Part shown: piece by piece, positions 860 to 49,525 of the stretch
How the letters are laid out: each line of letters opens with the position of its first letter
Numbering within the stretch: the stretch's first letter is position 1
DNA from: a virus
IMG/VR virus record: IMGVR_UViG_3300042484_001802
Reading direction: 5' to 3' (one strand)
Length of the DNA stretch: 64,000 nt
Program-made: the position numbers and the translations under genes
Notes under the pieces: generated by a model
Database searches by the model: none
Told to the model about the DNA's origin: nothing
Seen by the model: the letters and a program-made list of their open reading frames with translations, nothing else

Positions 860-3800
860 ATGGCAAACGAATTTAAAATTAAGAACGGACTTGTTGTGTC
901 CGGATCAGCAGAAATTGAAAATAATTTAATCGTACGTGGTACCTTAACAGCGGATTTGGTAAACATCTCTCTTGTTAGTTCATCAGTACTATATGAAAGT
1001 GGTTCAACCAAATTTGGTAACACTTCAGACGATTTTCATGAATTTACAGGTTCATTATCTATTAGCGGTTCGTTAAATATTAACGGAACATCTTATACTT
1101 CAGCAACAAGCGGAACATCAGGTACTTCTGGTTCATCAGGAACTAGTGGTTCATCAGGAACTGCCGGCTCTAGTGGTACGTCAGGCACATCTGGTAGTTC
1201 AGGAACTGCTGGTACTTCGGGTTCTAGTGGCTCAAGCGGAACATCAGGAAGTTCTGGGTCTTCCGGAACAAGTGGAACCTCAGGTACGTCTGGGTCTTCT
1301 GGTTCGAGTGGTACTTCAGGTACGAGTGGGTCTTCAGGAAGTTCTGGTTCGTCAGGAACGAGTGGTACATCTGGCACTAGTGGAACGTCAGGTTCTTCTG
1401 GTAGTTCGGGGTCAAGCGGAACTTCAGGTTCTTCGGGTTCGTCTGGAACATCTGGAAGTTCAGGTTCTAGTGGAACGGCTGGCACTAGTGGTACATCAGG
1501 TTCTTCAGGTAGTTCTGGAACAAGTGGTAGTTCAGGGTCAAGTGGTACGTCTGGGACGAGTGGCACATCCGGGTCTTCAGGATCTAGTGGTACATCAGGT
1601 AGTTCAGGTTCATCTGGAACAAGTGGCACTTCAGGTACGTCAGGGTCTTCTGGTTCTAGTGGTACATCAGGGTCTTCTGGTAGCTCAGGAACGTCAGGTT
1701 CTAGTGGTACTAGTGGTAGTTCAGGTTCTAGTGGAACATCAGGTTCTTCAGGTAGTTCTGGAACAAGTGGAACTTCTGGTACATCGGGATCAAGTGGATC
1801 TAGTGGAACATCGGGATCAAGTGGATCTAGTGGAACATCAGGTTCTTCGGGTTCAAGTGGTACCAGTGGTACATCTGGCTCTAGTGGATCTAGCGGTACT
1901 GTAACAATGACTGGAACACAAGATAACGGTATCTTAACACTTAATGGTTCCTCACCAAATGCTACAGTTGAAAGTAATCTAAGATTTGATGGCTCATTAC
2001 TAACGGTTGTCGGCAATGAAACTATATCAGGTTCATTAATTGTTACAAACGACTTTACAGTATTAGGTTCTTCTTCAATATTATATGTAACATCATCACA
2101 ACTTAGAATTGCAGATAATATTATCACAGTTAACACTTCAAATCCAGGCGCCAGATTTGGTGGTTTAGAGGTATTTGATTCTGGTTCAATTAATAATGCC
2201 ACCGGATCAATTCTTTGGGATTCTGTTAATAACAGATGGATATATCAAAATTCAAGTGATGCTGGTTATGGTGGGGGTATGTTTTTATCTGGACCACGTA
2301 GTTCAGGGTCTTTAGGGTCTGAATTATCGTTAACAAGTGGTAAAATAGCAAAATCGGCAGGTGGTGACCATCTTAACGATTCAAATATAACTGATACGGG
2401 TACTTTAGTATCAATAAATTCAAATACAGAAATAACAGGTACGTTAAGAGTAACTTCAAATTTATTTATTAACGGAACTTCATATACTGCTGCTACTTCA
2501 GGTACTTCGGGTACATCAGGTTCAAGTGGTACGTCTGGAACATCCGGTTCATCGGGAACTGCGGGTTCATCTGGAACATCAGGTAGTTCAGGGTCATCTG
2601 GTACATCAGGTTCTTCAGGTTCAAGTGGAACATCGGGCACTAGTGGAACATCAGGTAGTTCAGGTTCAAGTGGAACATCTGGGTCTTCTGGTAGTTCAGG
2701 AACGTCTGGAACAAGTGGAACATCCGGTTCTAATGGTTCTAGTGGAACTTCAGGTAGTTCTGGATCATCAGGTACTAGTGGTACTTCAGGTTCGTCAGGT
2801 AGTTCAGGGTCAAGCGGAACGTCTGGGTCTTCTGGTTCTAGTGGTACATCGGGTTCTAGTGGAACGTCGGGTTCTTCAGGTTCAAGTGGTAGTTCGGGAT
2901 CAAACGGGTCAAGCGGTACTTCAGGTTCTAGTGGTTCTAGCGGCACATCGGGCAGTTCAGGTTCTTCTGGTTCGTCAGGCACTTCTGGATCTAGTGGGTC
3001 TTCAGGTAGCTCAGGATCTAGTGGTTCATCAGGTTCATCAGGAAGTTCTGGGTCTTCTGGAACATCTGGTTCTAGCGGGTCTTCTGGGACATCTGGTTCT
3101 AGTGGTAGTTCTGGCTCATCTGGATCTAGTGGTTCATCAGGAAGTTCTGGTTCGTCAGGTACTTCAGGTTCTAGTGGGTCTTCTGGAAGTTCTGGATCTA
3201 GTGGTTCATCAGGTTCATCAGGTTCATCAGGAAGTTCTGGTTCATCAGGCGCTGCGACAATTAATAGTAACGTAAACGATTATGTTTTAACAGCAACAGG
3301 TACCGCCGGACTAATTCAAGGTGAATCAAATTTAACATTTGATGGTTCAACATTATCAACGAGTAACGTTACCGCTACTGGTACGTATAATACAAATGCG
3401 TCATCAAGTAGAAACAAATATAACGTTTATTCAACGGGTGCAAGTCCTTACGCTATTGGTATGCAATCAGCAATCACTTATGGTGGTTTAAATGACTGGG
3501 GAATGACCTTCCAATTTAACAACGACAGCGGCAGAGGATTCTGGTGGGGTGACGAAGGACATTCAACAGCACAAGGTGCTATGGCATTAACTACTGACGG
3601 TAGATTAACAGTGGCAAATGATGTTAGAATCGGTTATGGTGAATCTGACGTCACAACACCAACACTACCATTACAAGTATATGGTTCTGGTGGAACAATT
3701 GTTGATATTCAAGGTTCTAGTGGGCAGTTATTCTCGGTAACAGATGATTTAACTGGTGACATATTCTCTATTTCAGATATATCAGGTATACCATTCATAA

Positions 3801-4063
3801 ATGTTAATACAACAAATGGTACTAGTTTTGGATATCATATATTCCCATCAGTTAACAACACCTATAACTTAGGTACATCAGCACTTAGATGGGCAAACGT
3901 TTTTACGAATGACTTACACTTAAGTAATGAAGGTAAAGAAGGTGGGAATGAAATTGATGGTACAACTGGTAATTGGACTATTCAGGAAGGGGAAGAAAAT
4001 CTGTATATTATCAATAATAAGAATGGTAAAAAGTTCAAAATCAATCTAACGGAAATAGAATAA
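860..4063 (+). CDS. Long fibre protein 1 with two Ser/Thr-rich Gly-X-X tracts
   Basis: 1067 aa, N-terminus MANEFKIKNG, two SGT/SGS tracts. The C-terminus NLGTSALRWANVFTNDLHLSN...WTIQEGEENLYIINNKNGKKFK is typical of phage fibre tips. Confidence 0.75.
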   Translation: MANEFKIKNGLVVSGSAEIENNLIVRGTLTADLVNISLVSSSVLYESGSTKFGNTSDDFHEFTGSLSISGSLNINGTSYTSATSGTSGTSGSSGTSGSSGTAGSSGTSGTSGSSGTAGTSGSSGSSGTSGSSGSSGTSGTSGTSGSSGSSGTSGTSGSSGSSGSSGTSGTSGTSGTSGSSGSSGSSGTSGSSGSSGTSGSSGSSGTAGTSGTSGSSGSSGTSGSSGSSGTSGTSGTSGSSGSSGTSGSSGSSGTSGTSGTSGSSGSSGTSGSSGSSGTSGSSGTSGSSGSSGTSGSSGSSGTSGTSGTSGSSGSSGTSGSSGSSGTSGSSGSSGTSGTSGSSGSSGTVTMTGTQDNGILTLNGSSPNATVESNLRFDGSLLTVVGNETISGSLIVTNDFTVLGSSSILYVTSSQLRIADNIITVNTSNPGARFGGLEVFDSGSINNATGSILWDSVNNRWIYQNSSDAGYGGGMFLSGPRSSGSLGSELSLTSGKIAKSAGGDHLNDSNITDTGTLVSINSNTEITGTLRVTSNLFINGTSYTAATSGTSGTSGSSGTSGTSGSSGTAGSSGTSGSSGSSGTSGSSGSSGTSGTSGTSGSSGSSGTSGSSGSSGTSGTSGTSGSNGSSGTSGSSGSSGTSGTSGSSGSSGSSGTSGSSGSSGTSGSSGTSGSSGSSGSSGSNGSSGTSGSSGSSGTSGSSGSSGSSGTSGSSGSSGSSGSSGSSGSSGSSGSSGTSGSSGSSGTSGSSGSSGSSGSSGSSGSSGSSGTSGSSGSSGSSGSSGSSGSSGSSGSSGSSGAATINSNVNDYVLTATGTAGLIQGESNLTFDGSTLSTSNVTATGTYNTNASSSRNKYNVYSTGASPYAIGMQSAITYGGLNDWGMTFQFNNDSGRGFWWGDEGHSTAQGAMALTTDGRLTVANDVRIGYGESDVTTPTLPLQVYGSGGTIVDIQGSSGQLFSVTDDLTGDIFSISDISGIPFINVNTTNGTSFGYHIFPSVNNTYNLGTSALRWANVFTNDLHLSNEGKEGGNEIDGTTGNWTIQEGEENLYIINNKNGKKFKINLTEIE
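1109..1900 (+). repeat. (Ser-Gly-Thr/Ser)n coding repeat, ~264 aa
   Basis: Gly at every third residue without interruption; synonymous codons highly varied. Confidence 0.95.
2498..3250 (+). repeat. (Ser-Gly-Ser/Thr)n coding repeat, ~251 aa
   Basis: Same triplet periodicity, becoming Ser-only toward the 3' end. Confidence 0.95.
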
Positions 4064-28038: not shown

Positions 28039-29160
28039 TTGGAAAACAAGGAAATATTAAAAGATTACGTTTGCTTAATGCCATTCTTATCCACCGACGT
28101 TCAGCAAGCATCACAATTCGTTTGTTGCCCATCTTGGTGCTTTAAAAGTTTAAGAGTAGATGAGAATGGCGAAGAAGAAGATTGGGCATCTTACTTTGAC
28201 ACTAGCGCAGACGTAATGAGGAACTGGACATCAACGCCAGCACATGACATTAGAAAATCAATGGTTGATGGTTCATACAGACATTGCAATCATGTAGTGT
28301 GTCCAAGATTAAATCAATTAATCAATGGTAGTGAGACCACGCCATATATGTTTATGAAGAAGGAAGAATTTCAAAAAACCTTTAACATATACAATGAGGA
28401 AGATTTAAAAAAGTTTGACACGCCACCAGAAGAAATATTGTTTGGGTTTGATAGAAGTTGCAATCTTAAATGTCCTAGCTGTAGGGTAAACTTAATACCA
28501 AATGACAATGTCGAATCTGAGGATTATAAAAATAAATTACATCTACTAAACTCAATCGAGAAGAATTTTGCTAGTAATTTAAAAAGAATAATGATAACCG
28601 GTAGTGGTGATCCGTTCTATTCTAAAATCTATCGCGATTACTTAATAAATTTTGACAGTAGTAAGTACCCCAAGTTAGAAGCGTTACAGATTATAACCAA
28701 TGGTAACTTATTAAACGAAAAAATGTGGAATTCAATGAAAGCAACTCCACATATTAAAATCATTGAGATTAGTATTGATGCCGGAACTAAAGACACATAT
28801 GAGAACAAAACAAGGTTAAATGGTAAATGGGATGTGTTAATGGAAAATCTACGTTTTTTAAGTACCCAGAATCACATTATTGAGGAGTTTGTGTTATCAA
28901 TGGTTGTTAGTAAACACAACTATAAAGAAATGTATACATTTTACGAATTGATAACAAACATATTTAAAAATTCAAATTTTAAATGGGGACTATCAATCAA
29001 CTATAGACAATTGGTTGATTGGGGCACATTTTCTAAAGAAACATTAGAAGAATTACAGGTTTTCAACATAGAACACCCTGATTATCAAGATTTTATGTCT
29101 GAATTAAAAAAAATACACAACCAGCCGTTTGTTAATCATAATTTCAACCATCTTCTATAG
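28039..29160 (+). CDS. Radical SAM protein (TTG start) with N-terminal Cys cluster
   Basis: CLMPF...CCPSW...C...CP; DRSCNLKCPSCR; ITGSGDPF; ISIDAG. Confidence 0.9.
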   Translation: MENKEILKDYVCLMPFLSTDVQQASQFVCCPSWCFKSLRVDENGEEEDWASYFDTSADVMRNWTSTPAHDIRKSMVDGSYRHCNHVVCPRLNQLINGSETTPYMFMKKEEFQKTFNIYNEEDLKKFDTPPEEILFGFDRSCNLKCPSCRVNLIPNDNVESEDYKNKLHLLNSIEKNFASNLKRIMITGSGDPFYSKIYRDYLINFDSSKYPKLEALQIITNGNLLNEKMWNSMKATPHIKIIEISIDAGTKDTYENKTRLNGKWDVLMENLRFLSTQNHIIEEFVLSMVVSKHNYKEMYTFYELITNIFKNSNFKWGLSINYRQLVDWGTFSKETLEELQVFNIEHPDYQDFMSELKKIHNQPFVNHNFNHLL

Positions 29161-29192
29161 GTTTTTTGATTTTTTTTAGTTATATTAGTAAT

Positions 29193-29627
29193 ATGATATA
29201 CTGGTTAACAGGCCAACCTGGCGCAGGAAAAACAACCTTAGCAAAATACTTAGTGGAATACTTTCCGAAAGATGAGGTTACTCACATCGATGGAGATGAC
29301 TTAAGGGACATCTTTAAAAACAAGGACTATTCCATAACAGGTAGAAGATTAAACATCCAAAGAGCACAATACATTGCACAATTCATGCATAGTAAGGGAC
29401 ATAATGTTATTGTGTCCTTAGTTTCACCATATCGAGACCAAAGAGAAGAATTTAAATTTAGCACATCGGTTGTTGAGATTTATGTACACACCACAGAAGA
29501 TAGAGGTAGGAACCAATTTCATGTTGAGGAATATGAACCACCATTAGAAAATTTTATAGACATAGATACAACAATAAAAAACGAAACAGATTCGTATTTT
29601 GAACTATTAAAAAAATTATCATTATGA
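29193..29627 (+). CDS. cysC: Adenylyl-sulfate (APS) kinase, compact form
   Basis: IYWLTGQPGAGKTT, IDGDDLR, SLVSPYRDQR, EIYV, YEPP. Confidence 0.85.
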   Translation: MIYWLTGQPGAGKTTLAKYLVEYFPKDEVTHIDGDDLRDIFKNKDYSITGRRLNIQRAQYIAQFMHSKGHNVIVSLVSPYRDQREEFKFSTSVVEIYVHTTEDRGRNQFHVEEYEPPLENFIDIDTTIKNETDSYFELLKKLSL

Positions 29628-30139
29628 TGACAAATGGTATTATCATTGACAATTTTTTAGACAATGTTGATGAAATAAGAGAGGAAGCGTTGTTATTAGA
29701 TTATACTAAATCATTACCCGAAAGTGAAGGTTGGAAAGGGTTTAGGTGTTTAAATGGAAACATGTTGACACTTGATTTACATGAAAAAATTAAAGAAAAG
29801 TTAGTTGAAACTAATATAAAATTTGATAATTGTGATATGAGGTGTTTTTTTCATTATACATTGGAAGAACATAATGTAGGTAAAAAAAACACACATCGTG
29901 ATTATGGTTTTGATTATGCTGGGGTTTTATACCTAGCACCAAACCCACAAAAAAATTCAGGTACGTCTTTTTATAATGATTTAGGTGAAGAAACCGGTTA
30001 CTTGGAAAACGTTTATAATAGATTAGTAATTTATCCAGCGAATGAGTTACACTCTTTAAAAGAATCTTTTGGTAACGATATTAATAATGGTAGATTAACT
30101 TTCACGTTTTTTTGTAAATTAAAAAATAACAATATATGA
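29624..30139 (+). CDS. 2OG-Fe(II) oxygenase-like protein (DUF6445-type)
   Basis: IIDNFLDN.DEIRE.AL...HRD..YAGVLYL.P....GTSFY...NVYNRLVIY....H....G....GRL. Confidence 0.75.
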   Translation: MMTNGIIIDNFLDNVDEIREEALLLDYTKSLPESEGWKGFRCLNGNMLTLDLHEKIKEKLVETNIKFDNCDMRCFFHYTLEEHNVGKKNTHRDYGFDYAGVLYLAPNPQKNSGTSFYNDLGEETGYLENVYNRLVIYPANELHSLKESFGNDINNGRLTFTFFCKLKNNNI

Positions 30140-30516
30140 GTAAGAAATATGCAATGTACATCGGTAGGTGGCAAAATTGGCATAAAGGTCACGAATGGTT
30201 GATCCGTCAACAAATGGACCAAGGTAAGAACATATGGGTAGCTATTAGGGATGTTGAAGTTGACGAGAACAACCCTAAAACAGCTCAAGAGGTTTTTCAA
30301 ATGTTAATCCAGGAGCCCTTTTTTAACGAGAATTTTGATAAGATTTTACTATCAATTATCCCAGATATTGAATCGGTTAATTATGGTAGAGGTGTTGGTT
30401 ACGATGTTATTTATCACGAGCCACCGGCGGATGTTGCGGTAATAAGCGGAACTGCTATTAGAACTGGACATATGACCGCTGATGGCTCAATAAAATATGA
30501 CCAAACAAAAGGATAA
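30136..30516 (+). CDS. Minimal HxGH nucleotidyltransferase (cytidylyltransferase superfamily)
   Basis: IGRWQNWHKGH; PDIESVNYGRGVGY; ISGTAIR. Confidence 0.75.
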   Translation: MSKKYAMYIGRWQNWHKGHEWLIRQQMDQGKNIWVAIRDVEVDENNPKTAQEVFQMLIQEPFFNENFDKILLSIIPDIESVNYGRGVGYDVIYHEPPADVAVISGTAIRTGHMTADGSIKYDQTKG

Positions 30517-30731
30517 TGATTGTAGAACGTAAACGACATATAGCCAAAACAATATCCTATCGTATTATAAGCACTATAATAGGTTTCCTTATAATGTGGT
30601 GGGTTAGTGGATCTATTAAGATTGGTGCAACCTTTGGTGTGGCTGAATTAGTATACAAACCTATTCAATATTACCTACATGAAAGGATTTGGTATAGATG
30701 GATAAAGTTCGGGGTAAAAGATAAAAAATAA
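30516..30731 (+). CDS. DUF2061-like small membrane protein
   Basis: RHIAKTISYRII...YYLHERIW. Confidence 0.8.
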   Translation: MIVERKRHIAKTISYRIISTIIGFLIMWWVSGSIKIGATFGVAELVYKPIQYYLHERIWYRWIKFGVKDKK

Positions 30732-30755: not shown

Positions 30756-32243
30756 ATGAGAACAGTATTGATAGGATCAGATTTTATGTACGATAAGGAT
30801 GGTAATTTAAGACCCATTGAAATAAACACTGCGGTTGGTTGGGATGGTCCCGAAAAAGTCGAGGAAGATGTTGATTGTTTGGATTTAACAAATTTATATC
30901 AATTTGTTGAGGATAATAATTTCCAAACGATACATTATGTTGGTGATATTGGTCCATTACACGTGACATTAATGACACATTATAGCGGAAGTTCTGTTAC
31001 ATATGAATTTCACGGGGTTGGTGCAACTTCCATTACAGTTCCATACATAGAAGATACTGAAACGACTTTAATTATTAGGAGTGCATATGACACAACAGCA
31101 CTAGTGGATGACACATATTGTAAGGATAAAATAGAGTTCATGAATCTAATTAAAGATTCTTCTTTTGGCTCCCAATTTGCGTACATTGACGAAAATAACA
31201 CATTGGTGTCAAATATCACATCTATAAATGATAACGGCGAACACCCTAATTTTATTTTAAAATCTAGATTTCCAGGTTATGACAAGTTAATTTATCCAAA
31301 ATTTTTTAAAGTTACAACTCAATCTGAATTAGACACTATAATAGCAAATAATGTTACAAGTGAGTATTTTTTAATGGAGTACCTATGTAACGTCAATAAA
31401 CTATGGGAAGGGCATTTAACGGTGATAAGAAGTTTAAACATTTTAGTCCCACCAAATTTAGAATCAATTCAAATTGGCCAATATACAAAATTGAATCAAA
31501 ATATGTTACTAGATAATGTGACATATGATTCAATCACATTTGAAGTATATTCAGATTTCAAAGAGAGTTATAGTACAAACCCACCTACCGGTTTTCAACC
31601 TAAATTATTGAATACTGATATGGTAGAAATGGCAGATGGGACATTAAAAACTGCATTGGATTTACAAATTGGGGACGTTATTAAAACAATTGAAATACCA
31701 AATGAAAAGGGAACTAGTATAGATAGTTACGTATCCTCCGAATTTGGGCTTACGTACGATACGTTGGTAAGTGATGCAATATATACAACTAATGTCGTAA
31801 CCAAAAAACAAAAAGTAAACACCTTAACTTTTATAAATGAATTAACATTTGAAGATGCTAGTACCTGGGAAGATACTATGGGCTCAAAGTATTTGATAGA
31901 CAGAGAAGGTGTGGTTATGTTTAAATCATTATGGGGGATATTTCCAGGAGATGTGGTTATATTATTAGATACTACTGATGATAATATAAATTTTGTAAGA
32001 AAAACAGTTACATCAAATATTCAAGTTAAGAGAGTGTTCTCTGGTTGGTTTATTTCAGTTGATACCGCTATGTTATTTTTAACTAAAACAGCCGGGTCAA
32101 CCAATAACGAATCATATGTTTCAATTGAACATAACCTTATATCTTGTCCCAATTGGACATGTACAAACGCTTGCTGGTCCATCTGTCCATCATGTCCGAA
32201 GTATATGTCTTGTCAATCTAATTACTGTTTTCCAGTATGTTAA
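30756..32243 (+). CDS. Circularly permuted ATP-grasp-like domain + Hint domain + C-terminal 8-Cys peptide
   Basis: aa1-282: DFMYDKDGNLRPIEIN, FILKSR, YFLMEY. aa283-460: MVEMADGTLK..DLQIGDVI...VSIEHN. aa461-495: Cys-rich tail. Confidence 0.65.
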   Translation: MRTVLIGSDFMYDKDGNLRPIEINTAVGWDGPEKVEEDVDCLDLTNLYQFVEDNNFQTIHYVGDIGPLHVTLMTHYSGSSVTYEFHGVGATSITVPYIEDTETTLIIRSAYDTTALVDDTYCKDKIEFMNLIKDSSFGSQFAYIDENNTLVSNITSINDNGEHPNFILKSRFPGYDKLIYPKFFKVTTQSELDTIIANNVTSEYFLMEYLCNVNKLWEGHLTVIRSLNILVPPNLESIQIGQYTKLNQNMLLDNVTYDSITFEVYSDFKESYSTNPPTGFQPKLLNTDMVEMADGTLKTALDLQIGDVIKTIEIPNEKGTSIDSYVSSEFGLTYDTLVSDAIYTTNVVTKKQKVNTLTFINELTFEDASTWEDTMGSKYLIDREGVVMFKSLWGIFPGDVVILLDTTDDNINFVRKTVTSNIQVKRVFSGWFISVDTAMLFLTKTAGSTNNESYVSIEHNLISCPNWTCTNACWSICPSCPKYMSCQSNYCFPVC

Positions 32244-32272: not shown

Positions 32273-32362
32273 ATGGCAACAATTATATCAAATACAGACA
32301 TCAATACTTTAAACACCACAATTACAACAATAGGTAGTTTAATTGTAACAGCAAACAGTTAG
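32273..32362 (+). CDS. 29-aa Thr/Ile/Asn-rich micropeptide (absent from the ORF track)
   Basis: MATIISNTDINTLNTTITTIGSLIVTANS; A-rich leader; fills the gap between two genes. Confidence 0.6.
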   Translation: MATIISNTDINTLNTTITTIGSLIVTANS

Positions 32363-32385: not shown

Positions 32386-32919
32386 ATGATACATTTCATA
32401 CCAAATATTCTTACTAAGGATGAGTGTGAATACTTAACGAATCAATTTGATTTCGAAAGAAAATATCAAATCTCGGCGGATAATGAATATACTGGCACCA
32501 ATATATCATATGGGTTTGCCCCTTCATTTGCGTTTAATACCTATTTAAATAAATTAAAATCAAAAGTGTTAGAATATAACAATAATTTTGATGATTTATT
32601 CAATGTAAACACATTTGTTAGGGAATATATGAACACCTCAATGTTAAAAAAACATTTAGATAGAAAAGACATTAGTGTTACTATGTCTATATGTTTAGAA
32701 TCCACAATAAATAAAGAATGGCCGTTATGTGCGGAAATCGGAAATAAGGAATATTGTTTCAACACAAATATTGGTGACGGTATTTTATTATTTGATGCGG
32801 ATAAAATCACACATTGGAGGGAACCCTTAATATGTCTGGAGAAAGAAAGAGTTGTCCAATTTTTTTTACATTGGAAACCTTCTGATTACGTCGCAAAAAA
32901 AACAAAATCATTATTATAA
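32386..32919 (+). CDS. 2OG-Fe(II) oxygenase
   Basis: REY....LKKHLDR...SVTM.....WPL...GD...HWREP...QFFLHW. Confidence 0.8.
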   Translation: MIHFIPNILTKDECEYLTNQFDFERKYQISADNEYTGTNISYGFAPSFAFNTYLNKLKSKVLEYNNNFDDLFNVNTFVREYMNTSMLKKHLDRKDISVTMSICLESTINKEWPLCAEIGNKEYCFNTNIGDGILLFDADKITHWREPLICLEKERVVQFFLHWKPSDYVAKKTKSLL

Positions 32920-32930
32920 AAAAATAAATT

Positions 32931-33515
32931 ATGCCATTTACATATACAATAGAGTCAACCTTTTTAACAAAAGAAGAATGTGATTTAATATTAGATTTTT
33001 CATTAAAAGAATTAAAATTAGTACCATCGGAAATTCTTACCAATTACACCGATGGTGGCGACGTTAATACCGATATTAGAAAATCAAATCAAGTATTTTA
33101 CCCCTATTATAAAAAATTTCCATTTTTATTAGAAAAAATGAGTAAATTATTAAATCAACATATTTTTGTTAAAGGGTTCGATTTAGATTTTAAAGAAAGT
33201 CAATTTCAGTTTACTGAGTATCATCCAGGCGGACATTTTGGCTGGCATAGAGATGCTCATGGAAAAAAAATAACGGATTATGACAGGTATTGTTCATTAG
33301 TGATACAACTAAATGATGAGTATGGAGAGGGTGATTTACAAATAAAAGATGATCAGAATGGGACCCTAACAGTTGAAAAGGGTACAGGAAATTTGATATT
33401 ATTTTTATCAAATATTGAACATAGAGTAGTGCCAGTAAAAAGTGGGATTAGATATACACTAGTTAATTGGGTGAAATTAAAACAAAAAAAAGATTATAAA
33501 AAAACACTTTTATAG
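32931..33515 (+). CDS. 2OG-Fe(II) oxygenase (PKHD/prolyl hydroxylase-like)
   Basis: QFTEY..G.HF.WHRD...SLVIQLND.Y..GDL...HRV.PV.SG.RY.LV.W. Confidence 0.9.
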   Translation: MPFTYTIESTFLTKEECDLILDFSLKELKLVPSEILTNYTDGGDVNTDIRKSNQVFYPYYKKFPFLLEKMSKLLNQHIFVKGFDLDFKESQFQFTEYHPGGHFGWHRDAHGKKITDYDRYCSLVIQLNDEYGEGDLQIKDDQNGTLTVEKGTGNLILFLSNIEHRVVPVKSGIRYTLVNWVKLKQKKDYKKTLL

Positions 33516-33516
33516 C

Positions 33517-33834
33517 ATGAAAATAAATTTTAAAGAAATATTAAATGCTTGGTATAATGTTATAAATCACACACCAGAACAAAAGGAATTAGCAGATAAA
33601 AGATTCGCTATATGTTTAGAATGCCCCTCTAAAATAGAAATTTTAAAAGACAAGAAATGGCTTTTTAAATGTAAAGAATGTGGTTGTCCTTTAGGCGCAA
33701 AAGTTTACACTGAAACAACATACCTTACTAAAGACAAATCTTGTCCACTTGATAAATGGAAAGAAGTTGAAATGGAATTTATGAGTAAACATAGTGACAC
33801 GATTAAATATAAAACTAAAAAAACATTTCTTTAG
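33517..33834 (+). CDS. Small Cys-rich zinc-binding protein (DUF6171-like)
   Basis: RFAICLECP...CKECGCPL.AK......CPLDKW. Confidence 0.7.
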   Translation: MKINFKEILNAWYNVINHTPEQKELADKRFAICLECPSKIEILKDKKWLFKCKECGCPLGAKVYTETTYLTKDKSCPLDKWKEVEMEFMSKHSDTIKYKTKKTFL

Positions 33835-37097: not shown

Positions 37098-38147
37098 ATG
37101 GGTAATAAAATTGATTTAAAAAATTATACGTGTAGTGTGCCATTTACATCATTAGAAATACATAACAATGTTTGTTTTGTGTGCTGTCCATCCTGGTTAC
37201 CAAACAAAGTAGAACTTAGTGAAATTCCATTAAAAGATGTTTATAATAGCGAACCAATTATTGATATAAGAAACTCGATATTAGATGGTTCATTTAGATA
37301 TTGTAGTCAAGAGCTTTGTCCTTATTTAAGTAAATTAGTGAAGTATGGTGCGGAATCTGGGCCAGTCACTTTAAAATCAAATTCAAATGTTAATAGCCCT
37401 ATTGTAAAAAATAACGCACCAGATTATTTGATGATGAATTTTGATAGAACATGTAACTACAAATGTCCATCATGTAGAGTTGATTTAATAGTTGAAAATA
37501 GTGAGGGTATAAAACGTGTAGAAAAAACAATAGAGGAGATTGATAATCACTACTCGAAATATGTTAAAACCCTATATATTACTGGATCAGGGGATCCGTT
37601 TGTTTCTGTCGGATTCAGAAATTATCTAAGAAATTTTAACCCTAAAAAATACCCAAACTTAAATTCCATACACCTACACACAAATGCGTCTATGTGGAAT
37701 AAAGAAATGTGGGATAGTATGCCAAACATACACGGATATGTCCACTCTTGTGAAATTAGCATCGACGCTGGTACAAAAGACACCTATGAAAATAAAACCA
37801 GGTTGGGTGGTAAATGGGATAATTTAATTGATAATTTAAAATTCATAAGCACTCTACCAATTTCAATTAAAACATCATTTGTGGTTCAAGATTCCAATTA
37901 CATGGAAATGGGTATTTTTTACAACTTAATGTACTCAATATTTGGTAAAAGAGTAAATGTGTTTTTTGGTAAGATAACTAATTGGGGGACATTTTCAGAA
38001 GGTGAATTTAAATTAAAACAAGTATGGGATACGGAACATCCAGAACATGAGTTATTTAAAAAAGAGTTTAATAAAGTATGGAAAAATGAAAACCTTTTTC
38101 ATAATTTATATGAGTTTATTGACAACACAAATAAAACTTTAATATAG
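37098..38147 (+). CDS. Radical SAM protein (close paralogue of 28039-29160)
   Basis: CSVPF...CCPSW; DRTCNYKCPSCR; ITGSGDPF; ISIDAGTKDTYENKTRL identical to the paralogue. Confidence 0.9.
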   Translation: MGNKIDLKNYTCSVPFTSLEIHNNVCFVCCPSWLPNKVELSEIPLKDVYNSEPIIDIRNSILDGSFRYCSQELCPYLSKLVKYGAESGPVTLKSNSNVNSPIVKNNAPDYLMMNFDRTCNYKCPSCRVDLIVENSEGIKRVEKTIEEIDNHYSKYVKTLYITGSGDPFVSVGFRNYLRNFNPKKYPNLNSIHLHTNASMWNKEMWDSMPNIHGYVHSCEISIDAGTKDTYENKTRLGGKWDNLIDNLKFISTLPISIKTSFVVQDSNYMEMGIFYNLMYSIFGKRVNVFFGKITNWGTFSEGEFKLKQVWDTEHPEHELFKKEFNKVWKNENLFHNLYEFIDNTNKTLI

Positions 38148-46114: not shown

Positions 46115-49100
46115 ATGAATATATTTGACGCACACATATCGGGATCATTATCCGTATCAAGTTCAGCCGAAATTTCGGGTGATTTAAAAGTTTTAGGAAC
46201 AATTAGTGGTTCCTTTAGTGGTGATGGCTCTAATATCACAAACATCCCAGCGGGTGGTGTTGTTGGACTTAATTTAACACGAATAGCTGACGGTGCATCA
46301 ACAGCATCAATTTCAAATACAGATGGTTTAAGAATTAATACAAATTCAGAAATTACTGGTTCATTAATTATAACCGGTGATTTAATTATAAGTGGAACAT
46401 CTTTTAATGCCGCGACCTCAGGTACATCTGGCACATCAGGAACCTCAGGTACATCTGGAACCTCAGGGTCTTCAGGTTCAAGTGGCACATCTGGTACTAG
46501 TGGAACCTCAGGTTCAAATGGTAGTTCAGGCACGAGTGGTTCATCAGGTTCATCTGGAAGTTCAGGTACGTCAGGTACTAGTGGAAGTAGCGGTTCTTCA
46601 GGAACATCTGGTTCTTCGGGAACATCTGGTTCAAGTGGTAGTTCTGGAACTAGTGGAAGTAGTGGTTCTTCAGGAACCGCTGGAACATCAGGAACCTCAG
46701 GTTCAAGTGGTAGTTCTGGAACTTCAGGTTCTAGTGGATCTAGCGGAACCGCTGGTACAAGTGGCACATCGGGATCTTCTGGTTCTAACGGGTCCTCAGG
46801 TACTTCAGGAACGAGCGGTACATCAGGTTCTAGTGGAACATCAGGTTCATCAGGGTCTAGTGGAACTAGTGGTAGTTCTGGCTCATCAGGAACATCAGGT
46901 TCTAACGGGTCGTCAGGTACTTCAGGAACAAGCGGAACATCAGGTTCTTCAGGAACAAGCGGTTCATCAGGATCTAGTGGAACATCTGGGTCTTCAGGGT
47001 CAAGCGGAACATCAGGTTCTTCAGGAAGTTCAGGAACATCCGGAAGTTCAGGGTCTAGTGGTACAGCGGGGACATCAGGAACCTCTGGTTCTAGTGGATC
47101 TAGTGGATCTAGCGGAACCGTAACAATGAGCGGAACACAAGACAATGGTGTTCTAACACTTAATGGTTCCTCACCAAACGTAACTGCGGAAAATAATTTA
47201 AGATTTGATGGTTCACTTTTAACCGTTGTTGGTAACGAAACAATATCTGGTTCCTTAATTGTGACAAACAATTTTACAGTATTAGGTTCATCCTCAATAA
47301 CATACGTAACATCATCTCAATTAAGAGTTGAAGACAATATTATCACAGTAAACACTGCTAGCCCTGGATCTAGATTTGGTGGACTAGAAGTTCATGATTC
47401 AGGATCGGTTGGTATTGCTACTGGTTCAATTCTTTGGGATTCTGTTAACAATAGATGGATTTATCAAAACTCAAGTGAGGCGGGTTATGGTGGCGGTGTA
47501 CTATTGTCAGGTCCTAGAAGTTCTGGTTCACTAGGTAGTGAATTAACATTAACTAGTGGTAGAGTTGCAAAGTCAGCGGGCGGAGACCACTTAAATGATT
47601 CAAATATAACAGACAACGGTACAACCGTTTCGATAAATTCAAATACAGAAATCACTGGTTCATTAATTGTTACTGGTGATAAAATAACAGTAAAAGCGGT
47701 TGGTGGTGATGAGGGTGGTGAGATTTTATTAGGTAAAGCAGTAACCAATACAACACTTGTTGGTGATGGTGTTACTGTAGATATTTGGCAAAATAGATTA
47801 AGATTTTTTGAACAGGGCGGAACTGCTCGAGGTGCATATATTGATATCTCAAGTTTAGCGGCAGGTGTTGGTACCAACTTGGTTGGTGCTGGTTCATCAG
47901 GTACTTCTGGAACTAGTGGTACCTCTGGCACATCGGGTTCTAGTGGAACATCAGGATCTAATGGTTCGTCTGGTACGTCAGGTTCATCAGGAACAAGTGG
48001 TACAAGTGGTAGTTCAGGATCTAATGGTTCATCTGGCACGTCAGGTTCTTCAGGTTCTAGCGGAACATCGGGATCTAATGGTTCATCTGGTACGTCAGGA
48101 ACATCGGGTTCTAACGGATCTAGCGGAACCTCAGGTTCTTCAGGTTCAAGCGGAACATCTGGTTCATCTGGAAGTTCTGGTTCAAGTGGTACATCTGGTT
48201 CATCTGGTAGTTCGGGTTCATCAGGAACAAGTGGAAGTTCGGGAACATCGGGTTCTAACGGATCTAGCGGAACCTCAGGTTCTTCAGGCAGTTCAGGATC
48301 AAGTGGAACGTCAGGGTCTTCTGGTTCTAGTGGCACTTCGGGTACTTCAGGAAGCTCAGGAACGAGTGGATCTTCGGGTTCTAGTGGGTCTAGTGGAACA
48401 TCAGGTTCTAACGGATCTAGTGGTACGTCGGGTTCATCAGGTTCTAGCGGTTCTAGTGGAACATCAGGTTCTTCTGGTTCTAGCGGAAGTTCAGGAACAA
48501 GTGGATCTTCAGGGTCTAGTGGTTCAAGTGGAACCAGTGGTAGTTCGGGGAGTTCTGGCTCAAGTGGAACATCTGGGTCTTCAGGAAGTTCTGGTTCTAG
48601 TGGGTCTTCAGGAAGTTCAGGTACTTCTTTCGCCAATACTTTTAATATAAATCAAAATTTAGGAACAAGTAACTCGCCAACATTTGGTGGTTTAACAATT
48701 ACAGGTGGTGGTTCAGTTAGTACAACATTGACAGGTGCTAACGTTGGTGATTTATTGTATGCTTCAATTGCAGATAACGATTTTTTTAGATTAAGAGTTG
48801 GTGGTACCGCAACAAATGCCGGTTATGTTGAAATAGCAACTTCCGATGATGGTACAGAACCAATATATGTTAGACAATATACGGGTGTTTTTAGTAGTTT
48901 AACTAGGACTGCAACATTACTAGATGGTAGTGGTAACACATCATTTCCAGGTACAATTACAGCCCCAACATTCTCAGGAGCACTATCCGGAAACGCAACC
49001 ACTGCAACTACTGCGGGTAGTGCACCAAACGCTAGTAATTTAAACGCATCTTATGGTGTATCAACGGGTAATGGAAACGGATTAAAATTTTGGGGAGGTT

Positions 49101-49525
49101 CCGACACGTATAAAATTCATATGGGTAATGCCGCCGAATATTGGTATGGACCTGTGACAGATTATTCCATAAAGTGTAATATAGATAGTGTTGGTTCAAC
49201 AAGAGGTTTTACTTGGGGACAAAGTGGAGTAACACCAATTGCCGCGTTAAACGTAGGAAATGGAAATTATCAAATTGCGGGAACATTCACATCAGGTGGA
49301 AGTATATTACCATTAAGTAATGGTACGTTAAACTTAGGTTCATCTGGAGCAAGATGGAACACATTATTTACATCGGATTTATCGTTATCAAACGGTATTG
49401 GTGATTACACAATTGTTGAGGGTGAGGATGATTTGTTCTTATATAATAATAAAAGAAATAAAGTATATAAATTTATGTTGCAAGAAGTAAAACCAGAAGA
49501 TGCAACACCAAAGCGACCAGAATAA
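46115..49525 (+). CDS. Long fibre protein 2 with two Gly-X-X Ser/Thr tracts (paralogue of 860-4063)
   Basis: 1136 aa; shared central domain; C-terminal NLGSSGARWNTLFTSDLSLSN..YTIVEGEDDLFLYNNK. Confidence 0.75.
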   Translation: MNIFDAHISGSLSVSSSAEISGDLKVLGTISGSFSGDGSNITNIPAGGVVGLNLTRIADGASTASISNTDGLRINTNSEITGSLIITGDLIISGTSFNAATSGTSGTSGTSGTSGTSGSSGSSGTSGTSGTSGSNGSSGTSGSSGSSGSSGTSGTSGSSGSSGTSGSSGTSGSSGSSGTSGSSGSSGTAGTSGTSGSSGSSGTSGSSGSSGTAGTSGTSGSSGSNGSSGTSGTSGTSGSSGTSGSSGSSGTSGSSGSSGTSGSNGSSGTSGTSGTSGSSGTSGSSGSSGTSGSSGSSGTSGSSGSSGTSGSSGSSGTAGTSGTSGSSGSSGSSGTVTMSGTQDNGVLTLNGSSPNVTAENNLRFDGSLLTVVGNETISGSLIVTNNFTVLGSSSITYVTSSQLRVEDNIITVNTASPGSRFGGLEVHDSGSVGIATGSILWDSVNNRWIYQNSSEAGYGGGVLLSGPRSSGSLGSELTLTSGRVAKSAGGDHLNDSNITDNGTTVSINSNTEITGSLIVTGDKITVKAVGGDEGGEILLGKAVTNTTLVGDGVTVDIWQNRLRFFEQGGTARGAYIDISSLAAGVGTNLVGAGSSGTSGTSGTSGTSGSSGTSGSNGSSGTSGSSGTSGTSGSSGSNGSSGTSGSSGSSGTSGSNGSSGTSGTSGSNGSSGTSGSSGSSGTSGSSGSSGSSGTSGSSGSSGSSGTSGSSGTSGSNGSSGTSGSSGSSGSSGTSGSSGSSGTSGTSGSSGTSGSSGSSGSSGTSGSNGSSGTSGSSGSSGSSGTSGSSGSSGSSGTSGSSGSSGSSGTSGSSGSSGSSGTSGSSGSSGSSGSSGSSGTSFANTFNINQNLGTSNSPTFGGLTITGGGSVSTTLTGANVGDLLYASIADNDFFRLRVGGTATNAGYVEIATSDDGTEPIYVRQYTGVFSSLTRTATLLDGSGNTSFPGTITAPTFSGALSGNATTATTAGSAPNASNLNASYGVSTGNGNGLKFWGGSDTYKIHMGNAAEYWYGPVTDYSIKCNIDSVGSTRGFTWGQSGVTPIAALNVGNGNYQIAGTFTSGGSILPLSNGTLNLGSSGARWNTLFTSDLSLSNGIGDYTIVEGEDDLFLYNNKRNKVYKFMLQEVKPEDATPKRPE
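46418..47119 (+). repeat. (Ser-Gly-Thr/Ser)n coding repeat, ~234 aa
   Basis: Gly every third residue; occasional Asn/Ala. Confidence 0.95.
47891..48628 (+). repeat. (Ser-Gly-Ser/Thr/Asn)n coding repeat, ~246 aa
   Basis: Gly every third residue. Confidence 0.95.

Follow-up and report, generated by a model that had tools for sequence, protein, structure and literature searches.

Hint domains splice proteins, add cholesterol to Hedgehog and release the tips of toxins, and ATP-grasp enzymes are known to build amide bonds. In ATP-grasp enzymes of the glutathione synthetase (GS)/GspS type, a carboxylate is phosphorylated with ATP and the acyl group is then passed to an amine. Here, we describe P0001, a viral protein in which domains resembling both appear to be fused in one chain with a Cys-rich C-terminal peptide, hereafter named the cargo. 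Its gene is carried by an uncultured large marine phage (IMG/VR record IMGVR_UViG_3300042484_001802), of which a stretch of 64,000 nucleotides, hereafter the window, was analysed. We think it rather probable that P0001 is a self-processing precursor, made of an active ATP-grasp ligase, a C-terminally cleaving Hint domain and a cargo that is freed and on which the ligase acts. As far as can be told, the ligase-Hint-Cys peptide layout is undescribed: no description of such a fusion was found in the literature on ATP-grasp together with Hint or intein-like domains in phages, and a fold search of BFVD returned only Hint domains of other viral proteins, none with the whole architecture.

Parts of this layout have counterparts in described systems. 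In polymorphic toxins, a pretoxin-HINT domain (PF07591) stands directly before a polymorphic, exchangeable C-terminal cargo, which it is predicted to release by autoproteolysis (PMC3482391). The Hint domain of the P0001 family occupies the same position. However, P0001 does not match PF07591, has neither Cys1 nor the block B His and carries an ATP-grasp ligase in front; in addition, it is phage-borne and comes with no toxin/immunity pair, secretion domain, RHS or filament part. The first Hint domain (Hint1) of one relative, P0197, is weakly PT-HINT-like, scoring 21.3 bits against a cut-off of 27.7. Like the P0001 Hint domain, A-type BIL domains and Tetrahymena BUBL (6y75, 6tmm; 2lwy) end in His-Asn with no nucleophile at +1. 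A-type BILs need Cys1 and can splice by aminolysis (PMC4031507). In the BIL-ubiquitin-like-BIL loci of BUBL, a small module stands between a Hint domain ending in His-Asn and a Hint domain starting with Cys, a layout shared by two-Hint relatives of P0001. Unlike these systems, Hint1 of the P0001 family cannot form a thioester, the bracketed module of the relatives is Cys-rich and does not have a ubiquitin fold, and P0001 itself has a single Hint domain.

On the ligase side, YgiC/YjfC, GspS and eukaryotic glutathione synthetase (7uka, 2io7, 5oeu, 1m0w) resemble P0001 in the order of their elements, with a D-x12-E-x-N hairpin placed first. GspS, YgiC and glutathione synthetase link a peptide, through its C-terminal carboxylate, to an amine. 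The P0001 domain differs from this group by its non-significant sequence similarity, its smaller size and its fusion to a Hint domain and a peptide. Finally, the Peptidase_S74 chaperone (PF13884), which is expected to cut itself at the Ser of an SD motif, follows the Cys-rich cargo in one lineage of the family. It is absent from P0001, and it is normally found on long trimeric fibres, not on a Cys-rich piece of 25-90 aa.

Hint domain and predicted cleavage site

The motifs, the domain borders and the 35-residue tail with eight Cys that the initial annotation had proposed were all found in place in the translation (Table 1), and their agreement with the profile, fold and conservation data given below goes well beyond chance. 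No informative match came from direct scans of P0001 against Pfam, PHROGs, NCBIfam and PDB sequences; those to Adeno_hexon_C and ataxin AXH were set aside as weak chance or fold-level echoes. The main conservation alignment and profile comprised 84 diverse relatives, down to 23% identity. Counts at the end of the Hint domain refer to the 203 relatives in which this end is complete, counts on short tails to 159 sequences and entropies to 120 near relatives. The AlphaFold model built on the 84-relative alignment reached a pLDDT of 87.9 and a pTM of 0.85 (pLDDT 35 for single-sequence AlphaFold), and shows an ATP-grasp-like domain (residues 1-280), a Hint domain (283-460) and a poorly ordered tail (461-495, pLDDT 49-63).

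The Hint fold proposed for residues 283-460 was confirmed by the model and by structural comparison. The best Foldseek match of this part is BIL2 of BUBL1 (E = 4.7e-7). In VIA-align superpositions, the segment 280-461 gives Z scores of 12-15 with inteins, with two BIL domains (Tetrahymena BIL2 and one from Clostridium) and with the autoprocessing domain of Hedgehog. The Z score is 15.0 for 4o1s (rmsd 2.5, 145 residues aligned), 14.4 for BIL2 and 14.0 for Hedgehog 1at0, model residues 283-460 corresponding to residues 258-402 of the latter chain. The superposition places K283 on residue 1 of the intein and N460 on its last residue. At the sequence level, the family profile matches PDB intein sequences, with the KlbA intein at E = 3.7e-7 and weaker matches to other inteins, a BIL domain and Hedgehog.

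Block A starts at K283 (nt 31602), the block B motif reads TMGS (residues 374-377) and the domain ends with SIEHN (456-460). The terminal Asn is found in 203/203 relatives and the His-Asn pair, whose conservation bears directly on the cleavage proposed initially, in 195/203; within the alignment, H459 is kept in 83/84 and N460 in 84/84 sequences. Position 1 is occupied by various residues (K31/H22/L13/I8 of 84), with no Cys1, and the block B His position by Ser, Thr or Ala. A Cys is present anywhere in the Hint domain in 16 of the 84 members; none is conserved, and the residue at block F:4 varies. At +1, various non-nucleophilic residues occur (A, Y, L, F, G, V, S, D, P and others), Cys being found there once among the 203 relatives.

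Splicing depends on a position-1 nucleophile in class 1 inteins, on a Cys at +1 in class 2 and on a block F Cys in class 3 (PMC4031507). The P0001 Hint domain has neither the required nucleophile nor a Cys, Ser or Thr at +1. The class 2 and class 3 mechanisms were ruled out by the variable +1 residue and the lack of a conserved Hint Cys, and of the two A-type BIL features Hint1 has His-Asn, without Cys1. With no nucleophile at position 1, in block F or at +1, there is no splicing route, and Asn cyclisation is the sole reaction whose residues are retained. Judging from this pattern of residues, the Hint domain is probably reduced to C-terminal cleavage at the N460|L461 bond. The likeness to BIL and pretoxin-Hint domains drawn in the initial annotation holds for the C-terminal cleavage residues, but those domains normally keep Cys1, and the P0001 Hint domain is more reduced.

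Cargo peptide and its exchange in relatives

The most variable 15-residue segment of the protein starts at residue 461, adjoining the invariant N460. Column entropy averages 0.82 bits in the ligase and 1.04 bits in the Hint domain, and reaches 2.47 bits at the non-Cys positions of the tail, where the Cys residues, P465, P481 and K482 are invariant. The expectation that the tail beyond His-Asn would be hypervariable yet Cys-rich is thereby borne out. Among the pairs that diverged least, tail sites other than Cys have an omega of 0.42-0.51, as compared to 0.06-0.10 for the body of the protein. A role in recognition, or an arms race with hosts, is suggested by this combination of a variable peptide with a fixed Cys frame.

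The number of Cys in the short tails is 8 (118 tails), 6 (37), 4 (2), 10 (1) or 7 (1). Even counts, found in 157/159 tails, fit disulfide pairing better than Cys4 metal sites, and Zn(Cys)4 was ruled out as the main reading of the tail because six-Cys tails are common (37/159). In the short tails, Cys, Gly, Pro, Ser and Tyr abound, and charged or aliphatic residues are scarce. Most likely, the Cys residues of the cargo form four disulfides once extracellular. Lys represents only 3.2% of the tail residues; at least one is present in 159/159 short tails, and exactly one in 128. The C-terminal residue is Cys in 56 and Lys in 29 of the 203 relatives.

Distant relatives match P0001 from residue 1 to about residue 460 and then continue into unrelated cargos. 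Between 5 and 1242 aa follow His-Asn (median 38), and the long cargos include a BACON domain. In one lineage, a Cys-rich peptide of about 27-35 aa is followed by a second, canonical Hint domain (Cys1, TxxHPF, terminal His-Asn) and then by a short Lys-bearing end. This second domain scores 57.9 bits with Intein_splicing and 43.5 bits with PT-HINT, matches NCBIfam intein N- and C-terminal models above cut-off, and has both A-type BIL features, Cys1 and His-Asn. The seven peptides located between two Hint domains contain no Lys, which is always found in the 2-13 aa after the second domain. On a simple reading, the second Hint domain is an A-type-BIL-like insertion, the removal of which rebuilds a "Cys peptide plus Lys" product with Lys as a chemical handle. 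In another lineage, a Cys-rich piece precedes Peptidase_S74 (29.1 bits, cut-off 22), the self-cleaving chaperone of tail fibres; the predicted S74 cut in one of these proteins (L081) would leave a peptide with Lys as its last residue, as in related cargos that end at a stop codon. That self-cutting domains flank the peptide on both sides in two lineages is difficult to account for unless its release is intended.

Ligase domain, proposed mechanism and alternatives

Residues 1-277 of the model superpose on E. coli YgiC (7uka; Z 8.2, 193 residues aligned, rmsd 4.0), on the glutathione-synthetase-like GSS22 (5oeu; Z 8.0), on GspS (2io7; Z 7.6) and on eukaryotic glutathione synthetases (Z 7.3-7.4; all VIA-align), and a Foldseek search of the model matched glutathione synthetases at E = 3e-5 to 9e-5. 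YgiC, GspS and GS-like structures all align from model residue 1, whereas canonical ATP-grasps (ArgX, RimK, TTL, PurD) align only from about residue 56. This difference points to a permuted ATP-grasp fold with the metal-binding hairpin moved first, in agreement with the circular permutation deduced initially from the order of the motifs. These motifs are D..G....IEIN (residues 13-24), FILK (166-169) and FLMEY (205-209). Across the 84 relatives, D9, E22, N24, R108, D118 and R225 are invariant. D9, E22 and N24 are in register with D102, E115 and N117 of YgiC, the same register being given by a piece of the hhalign alignment and by superposition. Language-model look-alikes include ATP-grasp clusters at 0.88, which we take as a lead only, and a complex prediction of the ligase domain with the 35-aa tail scored 0.00, which is evidence neither way. 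A Pfam GSP_synth search of the nearest virus record gave no match.

In the best-supported part of the mechanism that we propose, the protein folds, N460 would cyclise to a succinimide, breaking the N460|L461 bond, and the 35-residue peptide (~3.95 kDa) would leave the 52.0 kDa enzyme. The folds, the pattern of conservation, the border between modules, the exchange of cargos and the partner genes are shown by the data; we infer the cleavage step and, more weakly, the ligase substrate and the final destination of the product. The fused ligase would most likely make an amide bond involving the freed cargo, since ligase residues are strongly constrained in every architecture and the ligase is never separated from the Hint domain. 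The amine could be provided by the K482 side chain or by the new N-terminus of the cargo, and the carboxylate by the C-terminus of a 29-aa micro-peptide encoded directly downstream (see below), by the C-terminus of the cargo itself or by a virion protein. We favour a product acting at the virion surface or outside the cell because of the S74 and BACON cargos, the position of the gene between fibre genes, the tail sheath gene near the relative P0156 and the disulfide-type composition of the cargo.

More tentatively, P0001 may represent a viral "cut-and-ligate" system, in which the Hint domain exposes the cargo and the ATP-grasp domain joins it covalently, via Lys or a terminus, to the micro-peptide, to a virion protein or to itself as a ring. 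We regard this more specific scheme as possible rather than probable. Joining the cargo to the micro-peptide could amount to a Pup- or ubiquitin-like tagging chemistry without E1/E2/E3. If true, cut-and-ligate would add a new enzymatic way, spread across hundreds of large aquatic phages, in which disulfide-rich peptides are conjugated or cyclised. Provided that the ligase acts on the released peptide, the fusion would be a compact, genetically encoded means of making small cystine-rich peptides and of attaching or cyclising them, which would make it interesting for intein technology and for the engineering of peptides. Part of the "modification islands" of large marine phages, so far unexplained, could be accounted for by it as well.

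Several observations weigh against a self-processing precursor with an active ligase. The ATP-grasp assignment, a fold-level one drawn from a middling Z score (8.2) and the motif register, is less secure than that of the Hint domain. No Pfam ATP-grasp model matches any of the 84 family members, and the hhalign comparison of the family profile with E. coli YgiC is non-significant (probability 0.3%). At the position of the block F His, which often aids Asn cyclisation, P0001 has Met, and only 31/84 members have His; some inteins work without it (PMC4031507). The tail is modelled at low pLDDT and, dS being saturated in most pairs, its omega values indicate a faster non-synonymous rate only, leaving positive selection unsupported. 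In the two-Hint relatives, the ligase is intact although a thioester could already activate the peptide C-terminus, so that simple C-terminal activation does not explain all forms. Finally, the relative P0217 has only 7 residues past His-Asn.

Other explanations of the fusion were weighed against the same data. The Hint domain could serve for release only, freeing an effector, a toxin or a virion decoration as in pretoxin-Hint proteins, while the ligase, unrelated to the cargo, makes a small amide metabolite or modifies a glycan or another protein of the island. The position of the cargo and its swapping for unrelated domains resemble the PT-HINT architecture (PMC3482391), the gene lies within a large island of sugar- and peptide-modifying enzymes, and the enzymes structurally closest to the ligase have small molecules as substrates (glutathione, spermidine, an E-64 precursor). 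We nevertheless hold release alone to be unlikely: ligase and Hint domain are fused in every full-length relative fetched (25-99% identity), the obligatory Lys of a peptide that otherwise varies freely calls for some chemical function, and the micro-gene and a zinc-ribbon gene track the fusion, not the island. Macrocyclisation, whereby the ligase would activate the C-terminal carboxylate of the cargo and join it to the cargo N-terminus or Lys, giving a cyclic cystine-rich peptide, is in line with the nearest ligase folds, which activate C-terminal carboxylates of small peptides. It also agrees with the C-terminal Cys of 56/203 relatives, as in the gamma-Glu-Cys substrate of glutathione synthetase, and with the freeing of both peptide ends in all three architectures. 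The Hint(HN)-peptide-Hint(Cys1) order of the two-Hint relatives is moreover that of the engineered SICLOPPS cyclisation constructs; 5ol6 is among the structural matches of the model. However, cyclisation is unlikely for cargos of 100-1240 aa, and Lys as the last residue, in 29/203 relatives, makes closure from Lys to the C-terminus implausible, so that we judge macrocyclisation improbable.

The loss of most Hint catalytic residues, including the block F His, could also mean that no cleavage takes place. The Hint domain would then be a structural relic, and the intact protein would work with its tail as a metal-binding or disulfide-stabilised domain, eight Cys being able to bind two Zn ions. 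Yet a relic would not keep the Asn-cyclisation residues in 195-203 of 203 relatives amid drift, six-Cys tails misfit Cys4 sites, the cargo swaps exactly at His-Asn, and extra self-cleaving domains bracket the peptide in two lineages; we give this explanation little credence. The combination of ligase, autoprotease and core peptide in one chain, put forward in the initial annotation, is supported by the model as a domain architecture. The ribosomally synthesised and post-translationally modified peptide (RiPP) product envisaged with it is unlikely to be of the graspetide type, in which an ATP-grasp enzyme makes side-chain ester or amide cross-links within the core, as in microviridins. An ATP-grasp enzyme and a short ribosomal peptide do occur at one locus here, but 54/159 short tails have no Asp or Glu, no Thr/Ser-Asp/Glu pattern or acidic position is conserved in the tails, the ligase fold is nearest to the GS/GspS group and not to microviridin ligases, and a peptide fused to its enzyme has no need of a leader peptide. 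Taken together, these features make a graspetide very unlikely.

Family, partner genes and genomic setting

The P0001 family comprises 767 clusters at 90% identity, nearly all of about 495 aa, and 253 representatives at 50% identity, and was found on 76 IMG/VR contigs of at most 335 kb. It is almost exclusively viral. Among 185,579 prokaryotic species genomes, a single match was obtained, on a 248-kb contig (L010, CBFHJJ010000001.1) of a Flavobacteriaceae metagenome-assembled genome (MAG). This contig is probably a phage genome binned with the MAG, and its binning hints at the host group. No Pfam, NCBIfam or PHROG model covers the ligase or the first Hint domain of the family. In the collections searched, the nearest record, an IMG/VR virus fragment, encodes a copy of P0001 that is 99% identical. 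No close cultured phage was found: tblastn against 50,697 phage records gave zero matches, and the sole match in a megablast search with 20 kb of the window was a 150-nt collagen-repeat segment. On the 211-kb record IMGVR_UViG_3300042892_005961, the fusion gene occurs twice (L054, L065), at a distance of about 38 kb and with different Cys-rich cargos (8 Cys and 6 Cys).

Table 1 Features of the P0001 locus, with positions in the window
Feature	Position	Strand	Basis or remark
ORF encoding the ligase-Hint-Cys peptide fusion (P0001)	30756-32243	+	stop-free translation, 495 aa
ATP-grasp-like amide ligase domain, permuted GS/GspS type	30756-31601	+	aa 1-282; fold and motif register
D9, E22, N24, putative Mg/ATP site	30780-30827	+	conservation; ligand role by analogy
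K169	31260-31262	+	conserved in at least 90% of 84 relatives
Hint domain, K283 in place of Cys1, S377 in place of block B His, end H459-N460	31602-32135	+	aa 283-460; fold, profile, conservation
Predicted scissile bond N460|L461	32133-32138	+	invariant N460 (codon 32133-32135)
Cargo peptide, 35 aa, 8 Cys, one Lys, 3954.6 Da reduced	32136-32240, through stop 32243	+	aa 461-495
K482	32199-32201	+	conserved Lys of the cargo
Micro-gene, 29 aa, Thr/Asn-rich, ends ...ANS	32273-32362	+	directly downstream of the fusion gene
2OG-Fe(II) oxygenase (PF13640)	32931-33515	+	Pfam E 1.1e-13; in 67/86 loci
Zinc-ribbon-like protein, 105 aa, CxxC...CxxC	33517-33834	+	conserved partner
Upstream block: APS-kinase-like, DUF6445, 126-aa nucleotidyltransferase-like, DUF2061 membrane protein	29166-30731	+	Pfam, NCBIfam matches

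A micro-ORF of 19-71 aa starts at most 120 nt past the stop codon of the fusion gene in 82/85 loci. Near relatives encode a product of 29 aa, those at mid-distance one of 25 aa and distant ones one of 44-49 aa, and the pattern remains recognisably related. The micro-gene is a real gene, likely to encode a partner or a substrate of the fusion protein. The zinc-ribbon-like gene is present in 82/86 fusion-bearing loci, including 11 of the 15 in which the fusion is less than 40% identical (tblastn). Its product is 40% identical to that of a gene beside P0156, a 997-aa relative (33% identical) encoded just upstream of a tail sheath gene, and a weak DUF6171 match is on record for a relative. Upstream of the fusion gene, the DUF6445 protein (29624-30139) is restricted to the closest loci. 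The APS-kinase-like, nucleotidyltransferase-like and DUF2061 genes recur in the same order beside relatives of 25-30% identity, each in 36-38 of the 86 loci, many of which have cut flanks. The nucleotidyltransferase-like protein is weakly similar to NMN adenylyltransferase, and together with the APS-kinase-like and DUF2061 proteins it may make up a sulfate or nucleotide activation module.

The P0001 gene is part of a run of about 53 kb of tightly packed genes on the + strand. Collagen-repeat proteins encoded at 860-4063 and 46115-49525 (Pfam Collagen, E = 2.6e-70 and 3.3e-66), together with several genes for ConA-like, lectin-type "virion structural proteins", bracket the modification island that holds it. 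The island encodes a carbamoyltransferase, two radical SAM proteins, the APS-kinase-like protein, 2OG oxygenases and glycosyltransferases. The two radical SAM proteins (28039-29160 and 37098-38147) are paralogues with Cys-rich N-terminal parts; both are weakly similar to twitch-domain radical SAM proteins, under every curated cut-off, and radical SAM genes also neighbour relatives of the fusion gene.

About 20 consecutive unrelated ORFs between 10724 and 39764 share a similar C-terminus, made of Lys or Asn, one or two further residues and two residues that are each Leu or Ile. Examples of this C-terminus are KSLL, KTLL, KTLI and KLLI; the ORFs concerned include those ending at 32919, 33515, 33834, 35928, 37097, 38147, 39210 and 39764. 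Most of the stop codons in this run overlap or abut the following start codon. The shared C-terminus may serve as a peptide tag, or may simply result from an A/T-rich signal for translational coupling. In distant relatives, K-H-L is the end of the micro-peptide and K-L that of the cargos.

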